Shown here piece after piece: positions 2,993 to 64,000 of a stretch of DNA of 64,000 nucleotides (position 1 is its first letter; every line of letters starts with the position of its first letter). Origin of the DNA: an uncultured Verrucomicrobiae bacterium (lineage in GTDB: Bacteria > Verrucomicrobiota > Verrucomicrobiia > Palsa-1439); NCBI GenBank assembly GCA_963812605.1, contig CAWEWF010000014.1, positions 819,438 to 883,437 of the forward strand, written 5' to 3'. The notes below the pieces were generated by a model that was not told where the DNA came from, searched no databases, and was given only the letters and a program-made list of their open reading frames with translations. The position numbers and the translations under genes are program-made.

Positions 2993-3951
2993 CGCGGCAC
3001 GGGCACTTCTCCCAGCACCTGCGCCACCACGCTGTCCGCCGTGTGCCCTTCAATCTCCGCTTCCGGTCGCAGGATCAAACGGTGTCGCAACACCGCCGCA
3101 GCCAGTTCCTTCACGTCGTCAGGCGTCACAAAATCGCGCCCGCGCAGCGCCGCCAGCACCTTCGCCGATTGCAGCAGCGCCAGCGAAGCGCGCGGACTGG
3201 CTCCCAGCGATAACCGCTGCGAGGCGCGTGTCGCGGCCACAACCTGCACGATGTACTGGATAATCTCCTCTTTCACGAGGATTGCCTCCGCGATTTTGCG
3301 CGTCGCGGCAATCGAGTCGGCGGTCATGACCGTCTTGACGCCGAGTTGCTGCAACGAGTGAAGCTGAAAACCCGAGTGATACCGTCGCAGGATCTCGCAT
3401 TCCTCTTCCGCCTCCGGATAATGAATGGCGATCTTCATCAGGAACCGATCCACCTGCGCCTCCGCCAGCGGGAACGTGCCCTCGTATTCGACCGGGTTCT
3501 GCGTCGCGACCACGAAGAAGTTTGCCGGCAGCGGATGGAGCACCCCGTCCACCGTCACCTGCCGTTCCTCCATGGCCTCCAGCAGCGCGGCCTGGGTCTT
3601 CGGCGGCGTGCGGTTGATTTCGTCAACCAGCACAATATCGGCAAAAATCGGCCCCGCGACAAAAGCGAAGGTCCGGGTCTGCAAGTCGAAGACGTTCGTG
3701 CCGATGATATCCGAAGGCATGAGGTCGGGCGTGAACTGGATGCGCTTGAAGGTGCTACTGAGTGTATGCGCCAGCGCCTTGGCGAAAAGGGTCTTGGCCA
3801 GACCGGGCACGCCCTCAATCAACACATGCCCGCCCGCCAGAAAGGCCACAATTGCCTGCTCCATGACCGCGCGCTGACCGACAATGACCTTCTGCAGTTC
3901 CCCGATCAACTGTTCAAAGGTCTCGGGAATCGATCCGCTGGTTCCGTTCAT
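2989..3951 (-). CDS. moxR: MoxR family AAA+ ATPase
   Basis: Walker A GVPGLAKT, RIQFTPDLMPSD, DEINRTPPKTQAALLEAM, ATQNPVEYEGTFPL. Confidence 0.95.
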   Translation of the reverse strand: MNGTSGSIPETFEQLIGELQKVIVGQRAVMEQAIVAFLAGGHVLIEGVPGLAKTLFAKALAHTLSSTFKRIQFTPDLMPSDIIGTNVFDLQTRTFAFVAGPIFADIVLVDEINRTPPKTQAALLEAMEERQVTVDGVLHPLPANFFVVATQNPVEYEGTFPLAEAQVDRFLMKIAIHYPEAEEECEILRRYHSGFQLHSLQQLGVKTVMTADSIAATRKIAEAILVKEEIIQYIVQVVAATRASQRLSLGASPRASLALLQSAKVLAALRGRDFVTPDDVKELAAAVLRHRLILRPEAEIEGHTADSVVAQVLGEVPVPR

Positions 3952-58620: not shown

Positions 58621-60920
58621 TTATGGCACAAGACGGATCCGATAAAAGCGGGAAGGAATATTTGTCGCGCCGTTGGAATCCACATAATTGGTCGTCGCAT
58701 CCCCGCTGCCGGAGATGATTATCGGGCCGCTGATATCCGTGAAGTTGGTGGTGTAGCCGCCGTTCCCGCCGCCAGCCGTCGCTTGCACGGCATTGGTAAA
58801 TCCGCCACTCGTCGTCCACGTGATGACCACATCGTTGCTCTGCCGCACCGCGGAGACAATCCTCAATCCGGAAGCGCTATTTGTCGGATTCGTGCCCGAG
58901 AGGAACTCGGCCAGGTTGTTCTGGCCATCGCCATCGGGATCCGCGTTGGGATCGGCGTTGGCATTGGTGGTCGAACCGAAGTACAGGATCTGCCATTGCT
59001 GGAACGGCGTCAGCGGCGGCGTGACGACCAAATTGACCTGCCCGGGCGTGCTCGTGTCGATCGCGTAATTGTGGCCCGCTGGCGCGGTGCCGATGACGGC
59101 ACCGTTATAGGTCAAAGTGCCGCCGTAAGTGAACAATGTGTACGTATTGTTGGTGAACCCCCCGGCGTCGGTGACATTGAGCGTGCCTCCCAAAGTCAGG
59201 TTGCCGCCCACAACTGTCAAATCGTTGTTCGTGCCCAACTCGTATTGCAGCACCGCGCTGCTATTGATAACCACATTGTTGCTGACCGTCAACGTGCCGG
59301 GACTATTGCCGGGCGCCAGTGTTCCGTTTACGGTCACCGGACCGACGATCGTGCCGCCACCCCCCAGCGCTGCGCCACTGACAACGGTGACCGCGCCAAC
59401 ACCCGTGCCGCTACCGGTGGTGTTGTTGACCAGCAGCGTGCCACTGTTGGAGACAACGAGCGGCCCGTTGAAGCCCGAGTTGTCGCTCCGCAATGTCAGC
59501 CGACTATTCGCTGGCAGGTTAAGCGTCAGCGGGCCGGAGCCGCCGAGCACGCCATTGAACGCGTTGCTACCACCGGTAACTGCCAGCGTACTGGCCGATA
59601 CCGCGTTGAGGCCGTTGGAGAAAACCACAGAGGTCTGTGTAAAGGCCAGGGTGCTGCCATCCAGCGTGATGGTACCGGCACCGAGCATGTTCGTATCGGT
59701 GACGGCGGCCTGTGTGTTGACAAAAGTCAGCACGTTATTGGTCAGCGGCACCGCCAATCCGCCCAAAGTCACCAAATTCGTATTCGCCACAGTATTCGTG
59801 ACCGTGACTTCGGCGTTGAAGAGTGTCAACGTGTTGGTGCTGGTGGGCGCTGTCAGTTGTGAGTCGATAATCCGGATCGCCTGGGCATTATAAATGTCAA
59901 AGGTGGTCGCTGGCGTCGAGAGGTTCACACCGACCAGTGTCACATTGGAAACGAGCATTTCCTGCCGGCCCCAGATGATTCCCCCGGCGCCGCCTCCCGT
60001 CGACGCGGTTGCCGTCACATTGCTGATGAGAATGTTGCACCAAATCGGAGTCAGGTCGACGACCGGCTGGGCTGCATCCGCGGCGGCGGTTTTCGGAGTG
60101 ATGACGTTGGGCGTCCCGACGGTGTCATAGAAACTGTAGATGGCTATCGGGTAACCGACATTGGTCATGGTGATGTCGCGATAGACGAGATTCTGCACCA
60201 AACCGCCCAGGTCCCGATCCGATTTCATGCGGATACCGTAGTCCGTGCCATTGAATGTGCAGTTGCTTACCAGCAGATCATGCACCCCGCCCTGGATGTT
60301 GCTGCCAATCGACACGCCGTGGCCGACGCCAAACGTGCAATTGGAAACGGTGATGTCCGCCGCCGGTCCACCGCTGCCGCCAATCTCGATATTGTCGTCT
60401 CCATCGCTAATGGAGCAATTCTGGACGAGCACATTGGTCGAGGCCAGGTCCATTCCATCGGTGTTTGGCGAGGCGCCGGGCGTGTTGATCGTGAGGTTCT
60501 GGATCGTCACGCTCACGTTATTGCCTTTCAGCATGAGATGAAACGCCGGCGGATTCTGCAACGTCAGGCCCTGAATCAGGATCCGGGTGCAGGCGCCGTC
60601 GAAGTGAATGAAATCCGGGCGGTGCGCCGTATCGAGATTCGGCCACCAGTTTCCGCTGCCAAAACCCGCATTGCCATCGATAGTACCCGACCCGCTGATT
60701 TCAATATCGTGAAGGCCGGAACCAGAGATGAAGGGAGGCAGCGTGCCGGGCCAACTGGCCCGCGGGAGCATCTTCAGCGTCGCGCCGGCGTTGACCTGCA
60801 AATTGATGTTATTGGCCAGCGTAATTGGTCCACTCAGGTAGTTGCTTAAATTGCCGCTGACCGGCACCACGACGATCCCGCCGCCCGCTGCGGCGGCGTT
60901 GCTGATGGTATTCTGAATGG
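58621..60920 (-). pseudogene. GH28 plus autotransporter-strand plus C-terminal domain protein, 5' end cut off by transposon insertion
   Basis: NTDGMD, GDDNI, GHGVSIGS, GIRMKS; the frame starts mid-motif (..IQNTISNAAAAGGG) exactly at the TGTAG element end. Confidence 0.8.
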
Positions 60921-60951
60921 TGTAGGGACAACCTATTTATGAGACCAGTTT

Positions 60952-61995
60952 TCATGGGAACTGGGTAACACTTTTGGGTTCTGAGATCGTAATGATCCCT
61001 TGTTGTTGTAACCAGGTTTCCACTGCTCGACGCCACGCGGCGTCGGCGTATCCCTGGGTGCGAACGGGCTGGTCCAGCATGATCTTCATGGCCAATTCGC
61101 TGATCTGCTCAAACATTTCCTTTCTCCCGCGGCGAGTATAGCCGCACAGGTTCCACTTTGCACTGGCAAACTGCTCGCAGGCCGTGACGCCTCGCAGACA
61201 GCGACGGGGCCGGTGATTGAGTTCATGGACGGTCAACGCGGCCAGAACAGCGACGTTGCCGGCCGGATGGGCCAGGAGCCGGGGACGCAACGCCCCTTTG
61301 AGTTCGCGCTGGGCGCGTTCGATGCCGCCGTTGTAGGGAGGGTAGTACGGCGGTGAGTTCAACGGGATCACCAGCCACCGGCTGAGCACGGCGTCAACGG
61401 CTTCGCTGTTGAGGTTGCTGCCGTTGTCGCGCTTGAGCACCAGCGGCGGGCCGTGCTGGGCGAACAACTCGTCTAGTCGAGCCGCGACCAATTCACCCGT
61501 GAGACGGTCGCTGACGAGCGGCGCGAACTTGTAGCGCGAAGCCAGGTCGAGCACCGGCAGCATGGGGAGTTTCTGCCGGGTTCCATCCCGCACGAGCACC
61601 ATCTCGGTGGGGTCCAACGACCAGATGGTGCCGGGCACTTGCCAGTGAACGCTTCGACGGTCGGCCTCGCGTTCCCGCAGGATCTGGCGGCGCGTTTCTT
61701 CCACCAACTCGTGGAAGCTGCGCCGCGAGATCTGCGAGCGATGTTCGGCATACAGCGCGGTCGTGCCGTGACTGCGATGGGGACCGTGTTCCAGCCGGCG
61801 CAACCGCGTTTGCAGGCCGGCCAAGTCCAAGGAGCCGACTGGCTTGGGGCCGGGCTTATGGAGCACCGGCACATCACGCGCCAGCCGCCCCTTCCAGCGC
61901 ATGAAGGTCGCGTAGGGCATCGTTGCCGCTGCACACAGCGGGCGGTACGATTGGACGGCTTGCGCGTGCAGTGTTTGCAGTTGGTTCACGATCAT
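60952..61995 (-). CDS. Second DDE (rve integrase core) transposase
   Basis: WSLD, VLDLASRY, KRDNGS, SPPYYPPYNGGIER, LNHRPRRCL; likely start ATG 61995 or frameshift fusion with the upstream HTH. Confidence 0.85.
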   Translation of the reverse strand: MIVNQLQTLHAQAVQSYRPLCAAATMPYATFMRWKGRLARDVPVLHKPGPKPVGSLDLAGLQTRLRRLEHGPHRSHGTTALYAEHRSQISRRSFHELVEETRRQILREREADRRSVHWQVPGTIWSLDPTEMVLVRDGTRQKLPMLPVLDLASRYKFAPLVSDRLTGELVAARLDELFAQHGPPLVLKRDNGSNLNSEAVDAVLSRWLVIPLNSPPYYPPYNGGIERAQRELKGALRPRLLAHPAGNVAVLAALTVHELNHRPRRCLRGVTACEQFASAKWNLCGYTRRGRKEMFEQISELAMKIMLDQPVRTQGYADAAWRRAVETWLQQQGIITISEPKSVTQFP

Positions 61996-62005
61996 GATGG
62001 CGCTC

Positions 62006-62348
62006 TCAGGAGTTTTTTTTAGTGCGCTCCAGTTCCGCCAGTTGCCGGCGAATCGCCAGCGTTTGCTCCAGCACCTGGACTTGCTCCTGCAACTGCTGCG
62101 TCTGTTGGTGGAGCGTTTCCTGCGCTGGATCGGTCGGCGTCGCCGGGCGGCCGCCCGCCCGGTCGCGCAGCGCCTCCACCAACGCCGCCAGCGCCCGCTT
62201 CTCCCACCGGTAATAGGTCTTGCGGGAGATGCCCAGTTGTTCCGCCGCCTCTTTGGCCGTGATCTGGCCGCTCTGCACTGCCACAATCAGCGCCGCCCGT
62301 TGCCGGGCCAGCGCCTCCTGCGGATTCGGGAGTTGGTTCGGATTCATG
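62006..62348 (-). CDS. Small HTH/coiled-coil protein (IS orfA-like)
   Basis: ITAKEAAEQLGISRKTYYRW, GGRP, Gln-rich coiled coil. Confidence 0.8.
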
Positions 62349-62374
62349 CTCCTCCGATTCGTCAAGCGCCGACG

Positions 62375-62730
62375 TTATTTTTCCTTGGACGGTGACGACG
62401 CTGGCGGCTCCGCCGGCAGCCGGGCCAGACGCTTCTCCAGTTTCGAGAGCTTGCCCTCCTGGGCCAGGCTCTGGCGCGCCAGCAGCCGCTCCAGTTTGCC
62501 CGTCAACGCCGGACCCAGTTGTTGTTCCGGGAGACAGCGCGGTTGCAACGCGTCCAGCATCCCGACCATCGCCCGATCCTGCCACTGAGCCAACAGCGTG
62601 CTGTTGATCCCCAGTTGCCGGCACACTTCCGCCGCCGGCGCCGCTCCGTCCACACTGAGAGCACCGCCTGCGCTCGTTGGTGGGCATTGTACACCTTCAG
62701 TTCCTTTTTGGGTTTGGTTTCTGTCGTCAT
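62375..62730 (-). CDS. Small HTH protein (one-base frameshift near 62633 as assembled)
   Basis: MTTETK..AQAVLSVWTERRR continuing in the next frame as AEVCRQLGINSTLLAQWQDRAM. Confidence 0.6.
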
Positions 62731-63910
62731 GGGGTTCTCCTTTCAGGTTATACGTGAGTTCTTGATTCAGTGAGGTCTCTTCGCCGTCGAGCCGCATCTT
62801 CACCTGGCCCTTCTCGGCGCGGATCACCACCGATTGCTGGCCCAGCCGGCCGACCATATAAAAGGGCTCTTGGGGTTGACCGCGCAATGCCAACTCCTGG
62901 ACGTTGTCGGCGATGCCGCGCTCAATCACGGCGCGCAGTTCCTTCGCGATGGCGAAGAACCGGTCGGCCGGGAACAGCCCATCCAACGACTGGTGCGGAC
63001 GTTTGTGGTTGTAGTATTTGACCCACAATCGTACCCGTTCACGGGCCTGCTCGAAGCTGTCAAACTGTGCCCGCACCAGGAAGTCCTCCCAGATCGTTTT
63101 CCAGAACCGCTCGATCTTGCCCAGCGTCATGGGGTGATGGGGAGAGCTGCGGATATGGTGGACGCGGTCTTTTTGTAGCTCTTGTTGAAACCGGGTCTTG
63201 CCACGCCACGTCGCATACTGCCGCCCGTTGTCGGTGAGCATTTCTTTGGGCACGCCGTACTCCGCTACCGCAGTGCGGTAGAGTTCCAGTACGTGCTCGG
63301 CGGTCTGGCTGCGGAACAGATCCAGCCCGACCAGGTAGCGCGAGTGGTCATCAATGAACCCGATCAGGTAGGCATTCTTGCCCCCCAATCGAAACGTGAA
63401 GATGTCGCTCTGCCACATCTGGTTGGGCGTGCTGCGCTCGAAGAACCGCGGTTTGGGTGGGTTCTTCGACACCTTCCTCTTCGTCTTGTGCATCAGCCGG
63501 TGCTGATGCAACGTCCGCCGCACCGTCTCGTGACTGCCCGGCAGAAACAACACCCGCCGCAGCACTTGGGCGATCTTCTTCACGCCGAAGTGGGGATGCT
63601 GTTGTTTCAACGCGGTGATCCGCGATTTGACTGCGGCCGCCACCTTGGGCGCGCCGGCTTTGCGTCCACCGATCAGTGGCTGTAGCCCGGCTTCCCCGTG
63701 CTGCTGGTAGCGATCAATCCACTTTGACAGCGTACTCTGGCCGACCCCGGCTTCACGGGCCACCAGTTCCAACGGGTAGCCTTCTTCCAGCCGCAGCTTG
63801 ACCGCCTTCAGTCGCAACTCGACGGGATAGGGCTGACTGCCGCGCCGCGCTGCCCCCCTCGGGGGGCAGGTCTTCCTCTTCTTGTCTTCTACCTTGTGAG
63901 TCCTCTTCAT
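62700..63910 (-). CDS. IS481-family-like DDE transposase (C-terminal end uncertain because of the nearby frameshift)
   Basis: N-terminal HTH YPVELRLKAV, RFFERSTPNQMWQSD, IDDHSRY, LTDNGRQY, GKIERFW, YNHKRPHQSL. Confidence 0.9.
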
Positions 63911-64000
63911 GGTAACACTCCAGGTGGTTCTTTCCGTGAACCACATGTTGGAAGTGTTACCCTGTTTCCCCAGAATTCCGGTCTCACGATCCGGTTGTTA

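Follow-up and report, generated by a model that had tools for sequence, protein, structure and literature searches.

Can a single insertion sequence (IS) encode and use two different catalytic transposases between one pair of ends? The question is raised by the last part of a 64,000-nucleotide stretch of DNA from an uncultured Verrucomicrobiae bacterium, referred to here as the window (positions 819438-883437 of contig C14 in genome G000), whose end coincides with the end of the contig. An earlier note on this stretch had described positions 60921 to 64000 as a transposon carrying two Asp-Asp-Glu (DDE) transposases, which we call Tnp1 and rve2, within one pair of terminal repeats. Having compared the locus with relatives in many genomes, we consider it probable that it is a copy of an autonomous ~3.1 kb IS from a widespread and apparently undescribed family, with movement by two enzymes acting asymmetrically as the putative mode. 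That the element is one unit in which both enzymes are functional appears, from the sequence comparisons set out below, highly probable.

A four-gene unit that recurs between the same ends

The element starts exactly at position 60921 (plus strand TGTAGGG...), the point at which it begins to match another copy in this genome; that copy, at C10:7829-10906, matches window positions 60921-64000 at 94% identity. The contig end cuts the window copy 5 bases short, and the C10 copy supplies the missing terminus (...GGACA, ...GGTTGTTAGGACA), so that the predicted ..ACA does lie 5 bases past the end of the contig. Across full copies the element measures 3,083-3,106 bp. Its minus strand carries four genes in the order Tnp1-HTH1-HTHcc-rve2. 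Tnp1 is an IS481-type DDE transposase (62375..63910, minus strand, ATG at 63910) with the motifs QSD, TDNG and IER, and its homologous core of 400 amino acids spans 62711-63910 (D168, D226 and E266 in the family alignment). The second enzyme, rve2, is a divergent DDE transposase (60952..61995, minus strand; 347 amino acids from a conserved MIV start; D128, D190 and E226) with the motifs SLD, RDNG and IER and a match to Pfam rve at E = 4e-10. Between them lie two small helix-turn-helix (HTH) plus coiled-coil genes on the same strand, HTH1 (62375..62730; 117 amino acids when intact) and HTHcc (62006..62365; 119 amino acids), the latter in the role of an IS3-type OrfA. Both sets of catalytic motifs in the earlier note are therefore present, and its order and orientation of four open reading frames stand, with one correction: HTH1 is frameshifted in the window copy.

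A DNA search of 61 related genomes gave a match in 23. Full-length copies beyond G000 occur in four of them, namely G001 (95% identity), G010 (83%), G011 (78%) and G015 (four copies, 78-80%), and full copies have common sharp ends, TGTCCTAACAACC...GGTTGTCC(C/G)(T/C)ACA. The flanks differ in 7 of 8 full copies, the G010 copy and one G015 copy having common flanks. Elements of the G015/G011 type have four intact genes (HTH1 117, HTHcc 113 and rve2 347 amino acids, the last from the conserved MIV start); the G010 copy is frameshifted throughout. Genome G450 holds 8 full copies that are 100% identical, and three more genomes have 2-4 near-identical copies at different sites. The whole four-gene unit transposes together. 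The pairing of two DDE transposases within one pair of ends thus recurs in G000, in the four related genomes and in the wider family, where copies with the gene order and ends seen in the window were found in other genomes, as the earlier note had suggested looking for.

Two unlike transposase genes within 3 kb are the usual product of nesting, and nesting does befall this family, five copies in G454 being split by another element. It is nevertheless very improbable that independent insertion sequences with separate ends are nested or lie side by side at this locus. The four-gene block and the same outer ends recur at different flanks in many genomes at 30-40% protein identity, and the phylogenies of Tnp1 and rve2 co-vary. 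Nor is there room for inner ends: only about 90 bp separate the outer end from the Tnp1 ATG, which lies about 40 bp inside one terminal repeat, and the rve2 stop (60952-60954) falls within the other, an arrangement that had been read correctly from the window alone. Searches with end motifs and for repeats found no convincing terminal repeats inside the element and no internal copies of the end motifs, again in agreement with the earlier reading. The repeat blocks it named are present, and with up to 1 mismatch allowed GGGTAACACTT is found nowhere in the window but at 60963-60973 (plus strand) and 63952-63962 (minus strand). Recurrence with the same outer ends and no inner ones contradicts nesting. 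An assembly artefact, a chimeric join at the contig end, might be suspected from the position of the element at the very end of C14 and from an HTH1 indel of the kind that assemblers produce; many independent assemblies have this structure within their contigs, and contigs of other public runs also cover it, so that independent copies contradict this explanation, which we regard as vanishingly improbable.

Beyond close relatives, the unit is widely spread. Of 401 genomes sampled from the phylum, 13 contained relatives of rve2 at E <=1e-10, and wherever the contig permits the Tnp1-HTH1-HTHcc-rve2 order is kept at 30-42% rve2 identity; seven of these phylum loci have all four genes, and L043 has Tnp1, HTHcc and rve2 with a weak HTH1 match overlapping HTHcc. 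A scan of one genome per species yielded 154 relatives, of which 80 were kept, with record titles naming Verrucomicrobiae/Opitutae, Terriglobia/Bryobacterales, NC10/Methylomirabilis, Nitrospirota, Thermodesulfobacteriota/delta proteobacteria, Planctomycetales, Lentisphaerae and Elusimicrobia (eight or more phyla). Tnp1 stands directly upstream of rve2 in the same orientation at 54 of the 62 loci with more than 2 kb of upstream DNA. The eight exceptions comprise five elements split by another insertion of ~2.3 kb and three that are truncated or internally deleted (L111, L118, L120); among loci limited by their contigs, 13 show Tnp1 as far as the sequence reaches and 5 are too short. An rve2 profile retrieved 362 representatives (50% identity clusters) at E <=1e-30 among 1.84 billion proteins, and a word-based search found at least 790 clusters, for which the most specific name is 'transposase InsO family protein'. 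A plasmid collection held no close rve2 relative, the 15 matches listed there being IS3-family genes with 29-38% identity over about one third of the protein. Gene order and end architecture are ancient, being kept at protein identities as low as 30-40%.

No intact element with one enzyme alone was seen in the 401 phylum genomes or at the 80 loci. When the same 401 genomes were searched with Tnp1, 13 matched, of which nine also hold rve2 and the four extra ones are fragments. Candidate solo copies (L039, L120, L018/G022, L152, L155-L157 and five NC10 loci) turned out to be remnants or interrupted copies, L039 being a 5'-truncated remnant. The truncated copy in L120 (989-2278, minus strand) adjoins a gene for a 429-amino-acid rve-type transposase and a 191-amino-acid open reading frame on the opposite strand, which probably belong to another transposon that removed the 5' half of the element. 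The five NC10 loci belong to the NC10-titled genome G454 (L071, L073, L075, L076 and L117), each being split by the ~2.3 kb insertion, at three or more positions in all; one interrupted copy shows a 7 bp overlap that resembles a target duplication of the interrupting element.

Short derivatives are also present, one of them, at ~143 bp, built of both ends. This miniature, in G451 (L136:199-341), joins ~98 bp of left end to ~53 bp of right end and occurs as a single copy; two further loci in that genome, L137 and L138, hold non-autonomous copies with internal deletions, of about 0.5 and 1.1 kb. Matches to an end only were found in G011 (C193:1-126, C156:18019-18146, C157:8739-8863, C131:16726-16834, C65:3509-3617 and C2:12703-12811) and at contig starts in G022 and G034. 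Assemblies probably break at the element repeat, and copy numbers in draft genomes are probably underestimates.

Two conserved active sites and their history

We compared both transposases with curated family models. Against the NCBIfam IS481 model (cut-off 224 bits) Tnp1 scored 234.8 bits in the window and 229.3 in L016, and rve2 only 56.9 and 70.1. The IS3 model (cut-off 160) gave 51.1 and 72.9 bits for rve2; Tnp1 just passes it (163.6 and 169.3 bits) but scores higher on IS481. Scores were 63-66 bits on the IS21 model, against a cut-off of 160, and 67-74 on ISNCY_2, against 250. Tnp1 and rve2 are 22% identical to each other (48 of 214 residues). A structure model of rve2 (predicted local distance difference test, pLDDT, 86) has an integrase-type catalytic core, with retroviral integrases and IstA as the nearest solved structures. 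None of the four open reading frames matched an ATPase or endonuclease family, which bears out the earlier statement that the element lacks an AAA ATPase.

Both catalytic triads are conserved. From 58 loci with both genes free of stops we drew 43 non-redundant members, leaving out L040, which has a stop in Tnp1 and whose rve2 carries D instead of E. The D, D and E of Tnp1 are each present in 43 of 43 members; in rve2, D128 is present in 42 (the remaining one reads X) and D190 and E226 in all 43. Ratios of nonsynonymous to synonymous substitution (dN/dS), calculated for ten pairs from six lineages, were 0.055-0.31 for Tnp1, 0.13-0.33 for rve2, 0.10-0.36 for HTH1 (in intact relatives) and 0.05-0.50 for HTHcc. 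By these measures all four genes are under purifying selection and both triads are maintained. The earlier note had seen its idea as vulnerable at two places, separate transposases with ends of their own and a triad degenerate among homologues; we found no intact solo copies, and the triads are conserved. In quick maximum-likelihood trees, path distances for Tnp1 and rve2 correlate with a Mantel r of 0.90, a value reached in 0 of 2000 permutations; this correlation is inflated by related rows and is taken solely as no sign of independent histories. At that level of resolution the two transposases have co-diversified.

The same data allow a different account, in which an IS481-type element fused long ago with an IS3-type orfA/orfB element, one enzyme catalyses, and the other is a regulator or serves an independent pathway (copy-out versus excision on the same ends, for example) without any heteromeric complex. 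The layout is what such a fusion would leave, with an IS481-like gene followed by an IS3-like OrfA plus OrfB and its slippery run; the two catalytic domains are just 22% identical, rve2 evolves faster than Tnp1, and no computed result points to a physical or functional interaction between them. We nevertheless judge this account unlikely. A pure regulator needs no catalytic residues, yet they are kept in the 43 non-redundant members, and both genes persist in every lineage that is multi-copy. No intact solo relative was found for either half in the 401 phylum genomes or at the 80 loci, and there is neither room for inner ends nor a trace of them. Our preferred reading, one element that uses both enzymes, is taken further below, after the ends and the expression signals.

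Ends, target sites and a possible mechanism

The terminal repeats are ~57 bp long and built of several blocks, with TGT...ACA at the termini and TGG or TGC at the left end in some lineages. In the window the right end in gene sense, which is the window-left repeat (60921..60977, minus strand), was delimited by the similarity boundary and by block comparison across lineages, and reads TGTAGGGACAACC..ATGAGACC..GGGTAACACTT on the plus strand; the left end (63944..64000, minus strand) runs into the contig end 5 bases before its terminal TGT. In eight elements from six to seven lineages both ends have the terminal TG(T), an ..ATGA.. box near 19-23 and GGGTRACACT near 43-53. CTA(A/G)C at positions 5-9, followed by ACC(A/G)G(A/T)T, is a constant feature of the left end, and the right end differs in these blocks; for this reason the two ends are, as far as their sequence tells, consistently non-equivalent. 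The heteromeric or end-specialised transpososome that the earlier note had proposed would be consistent with left/right differences kept across lineages.

A target duplication, expected in the earlier note, was absent. We examined 29 full copies, which represent six lineages, together with one miniature derivative, and found no junction repeat beyond the null when allowing an offset of up to 3 bases and repeat lengths of up to 30, with left and right flanks taken from different copies as the null; the best direct repeats at the junctions, of 0-4 bases plus one imperfect 8-mer, match these mismatched flanks. Empty sites were sought in 18 congeneric genomes for copies in G015, G011 and G000, and in related genomes for one miniature derivative and two NC10 copies, and none was recovered. 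The target preference is weak: positions -5 and -4 favour A, position -1 is a pyrimidine in 23 of 29 and position +1 is a base other than T in 26 of 29. In G450 the hexamer CTTATT closes the left flank of L089 and also opens the right flank of L090; the two were rejected as halves of a split duplication, the reciprocal flanks being unlike, and the coincidence could be due to chance (about 1%, a rough estimate) or be the trace of recombination between copies.

The junction between HTHcc and rve2 offers a possible route to a fused enzyme. HTHcc ends in a run of eight or nine A residues in all 84 sequences having both genes, redundant copies included (A8 in 63, A9 in 21); in the window the run is an A8 at 62013..62020 on the minus strand (T8 on the plus strand), the proposed slippage site. 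Relative to HTHcc the rve2 frame lies at -1 in 46 sequences, at +1 in 34 and in the same frame in 4, consistently within lineages, which divides the sequences into 45 A8/-1, 14 A8/+1, 20 A9/+1, 1 A9/-1 and 4 A8/0; the window copy needs +1. The length of the A8 in this region is unchanged in independent contigs from public runs, and both A8/-1 and A9/+1 were found in contigs with short-read assembler names. Database proteins of 469 amino acids that contain HTH domains plus rve are natural fused forms. Together these observations suggest that the run gives an HTHcc-rve2 fusion by transcriptional slippage, the more likely route because the run is kept whatever the direction of the shift and lineages need either +1 or -1. 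A comparable case is IS1447 of the IS3 family, for which passages in PMC6211511 describe an A9 run with transcriptional slippage both ways and +1 alone productive, and a passage in PMC1088944 proposes such slippage for IS elements generally.

HTH1 and HTHcc are themselves paralogous (31% identity over 90 residues, E = 2e-6 in a single comparison), and HTH1 resembles the N-terminus of Tnp1 at 25% identity. The Tnp1 frame is free of stops across the entire HTH1 gene in 38 of 38 members, even at 49-54% GC, and extends 247 to ~1,800 nucleotides past the HTH1 start; in the window copy it is open through HTH1 and stops at 62375. When codons were reshuffled synonymously in 20 informative members, with the window copy left out, 0.7-4.2 stops were expected over HTH1, and the per-member probability of finding none was 0.005-0.05 in most low-GC lineages and 0.07-0.49 elsewhere. 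Base bias at third codon positions therefore fails as the cause of the open frame over HTH1 in low-GC lineages. Over HTHcc, stop counts in the Tnp1 frame are near expectation in most members (per-member P 0.005-0.72), and in many lineages the frame ends at a TAA made of a T and the first bases of the A run, 22-25 nucleotides before the rve2 ATG. The open frame may reflect an overlapping coding region or translational coupling.

Upstream of Tnp1 lies a leader inverted repeat (63913..63962, minus strand), its two arms being GGGTAACACTT(CC) within the left end and GGAGTGTTACC immediately ahead of the Tnp1 ATG. In the family the left-end partner is GGGTRACACTCC at position 45 and the other is GGAGTGTNAYC, directly before the ATG and covering the GGAG ribosome-binding site. 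The consensus fold, seen in 8 elements from 6-7 lineages, has 17 pairs; because none is compensatory, the repeat may represent an RNA hairpin or two sites at which protein binds. This leader, the A8 run linking HTHcc to rve2 and the HTH1 frameshift had all escaped the earlier note. Abutted ends, inspected by eye, had no plausibly spaced -35/-10 pair that could form a junction promoter, and contigs of four public runs contained no circle junction and no sequence beyond the contig end. Two RNA libraries gave contigs 90-99% related to parts of the element, which are not counted as expression since DNA was possibly present.

Combining these features, we propose that rve2 would be made both alone, from its conserved ATG, and as an HTHcc-rve2 fusion arising by slippage on the conserved A8/A9 run, with HTH1 and HTHcc alone serving as OrfA-like regulators or adaptors that would act via their coiled coils. 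The leader hairpin would hide the Tnp1 ribosome-binding site in transcripts entering from outside. Movement would need both enzymes, which would form an asymmetric two-enzyme transpososome and work on a shared pair of ends, and we picture both as catalytic partners because a regulator needs no triad and an unused enzyme would decay. The division of labour might be one enzyme per end, as suggested by the conserved left/right differences, or one per strand, a likeness to TnsA/TnsB of Tn7; alternatively one enzyme could leave the donor and the other enter the target. Since no duplication is seen, the target is likely not attacked by two equivalent active sites a few fixed bases apart, and an unusual two-enzyme geometry would explain insertion without a staggered cut. 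A heteromeric or asymmetric transpososome is, on present comparisons, a tentative proposal that could well be wrong. The fuller version, an obligate pair of the IS481-type protein and a slippage-made HTH-rve2 fusion working on non-equivalent ends with no staggered cut, is more speculative still.

Several points weigh against the reading that we prefer. Selection and intact triads imply that both genes matter to the element, and a joint complex or pathway does not follow from them; that either transposase is made and active is a prediction from sequence. Only 20 of 40 splits are common to the two transposase trees, the other half differing, and with many long branches some exchange between lineages may have occurred. 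The lack of a recognisable target duplication in the family rests on flank comparison, with no empty site recovered. Several copies are frameshifted, both G000 copies included, and nearly all copies come from metagenome bins, in which homopolymer or indel errors may alter A-run lengths and frames. Finally, the family is undescribed only provisionally. The earlier claim of an undescribed IS organisation holds insofar as searches of full-text literature turned up no account of an insertion sequence encoding two DDE transposases; the comparison covered neither ISfinder nor TnCentral, and a name may already exist.

The window copy itself retains intact Tnp1, HTHcc and rve2. Compared with intact relatives, its HTH1 lacks one base at a CCGG site near 62633-62635. 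Two bases are missing there from the C10 copy, the copies in G001, G015, L060 and L062 are intact, and contigs of related variants in two public runs have one extra base; the deletion in the window copy may be an assembly error. In the C10 copy rve2 is split. Given the frameshifted HTH1 and the 6% difference from its sister copy, the window copy may no longer be autonomous. It interrupts a GH28-like gene (58621..60920, minus strand) whose frame reaches the element boundary and which carries many autotransporter-type beta-strand repeats. Homologues in the genus exceed 1,200 amino acids and have immunoglobulin-like repeats upstream of the break, and paralogues are many (16 of 18 genomes matched, with up to 13 matches each). 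The 5' part of the gene, expected beyond the insertion, was searched for in the G000 assembly and not found. Elsewhere on the contig, outside the window and in a non-coding stretch, lies a 72 bp right-end solo remnant of 85-86% identity (G000:C14:217536-217602, L002:3537-3603); just upstream of it (L002 ~3360-3440), a unit of ~40 bp (GGTGTAGCCACGGCT..ATGAGCCGTGC..GAAG.GCGC) with a hairpin-like inverted repeat is present in two copies.

Comparison with known systems

If the proposed mechanism is right, no earlier bacterial IS would combine two catalytic DDE subunits with the lack of a target duplication, and the element would also have an unusually layered expression scheme, made up of a hairpin in the leader, a transposase frame kept open through a downstream gene and slippage in both directions on an A run. 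To our knowledge, ISfinder aside, known DDE insertion sequences have one catalytic protein each. As a compact element with two DDE enzymes in many phyla and no target duplication, it would offer a test case for how strand or end choice is divided between active sites, for how the length of a target duplication is set and for how element fusion gives rise to new transposition chemistries, and at 3.1 kb it is small enough to rebuild and assay. There is also a consequence for annotation, in that annotation now splits such loci into two or more unrelated genes labelled 'transposase InsO family' or 'hypothetical', and the element ends break assemblies.

IS481 elements are described as having one transposase gene. 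The element resembles them in its TGT...ACA termini and in a Tnp1 that scores above the curated IS481 cut-off, and differs from them in having four conserved genes, a second DDE enzyme, ~57 bp multi-block ends and no duplication (29 of 29 insertions). Passages in PMC10045372 give IS481-type elements TGT...ACA termini with duplications of 2-15 bp, mostly 6 bp, describe the related eukaryotic IS481EU families as having one protein each, and give IS3 elements duplications of 3-5 bp. Likeness to the IS3 family, especially to the IS1447 subgroup, lies in the second half of the element, where HTHcc and rve2 resemble OrfA and OrfB, with an HTH-leucine-zipper protein, an overlapping DDE frame and an A run. 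Against this, rve2 scores far below the IS3 cut-off, the element lacks a 3-5 bp duplication, and the HTHcc-rve2 module never stands alone at the loci examined, an IS481-type transposase and an OrfA paralogue lying upstream of it. For the ISNCY / IS1202 group, the ISNCY_2 cut-off is not reached.

Conceptually the closest case is that of the Tn7-like 'heteromeric transposase' elements (TnsA, TnsB and TnsC), in which two different nucleases encoded by the element act on a single pair of ends with multiple sites. In Tn7 the partner of the DDE enzyme is an unrelated endonuclease, TnsA, which is restriction-endonuclease-like and not DDE; Tn7 also requires an AAA+ regulator and makes 5 bp duplications. 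Tnp1 and rve2 both have the rve fold, and no ATPase was matched among the genes of the element. IS21 (IstA plus IstB), Mu and Tn552-type elements likewise combine an rve-fold transposase with a second protein and multi-site ends, and IstA is among the structures closest to the rve2 model; in those systems, however, the second protein is an AAA+ ATPase such as IstB or MuB, whereas in this element it is a second transposase.

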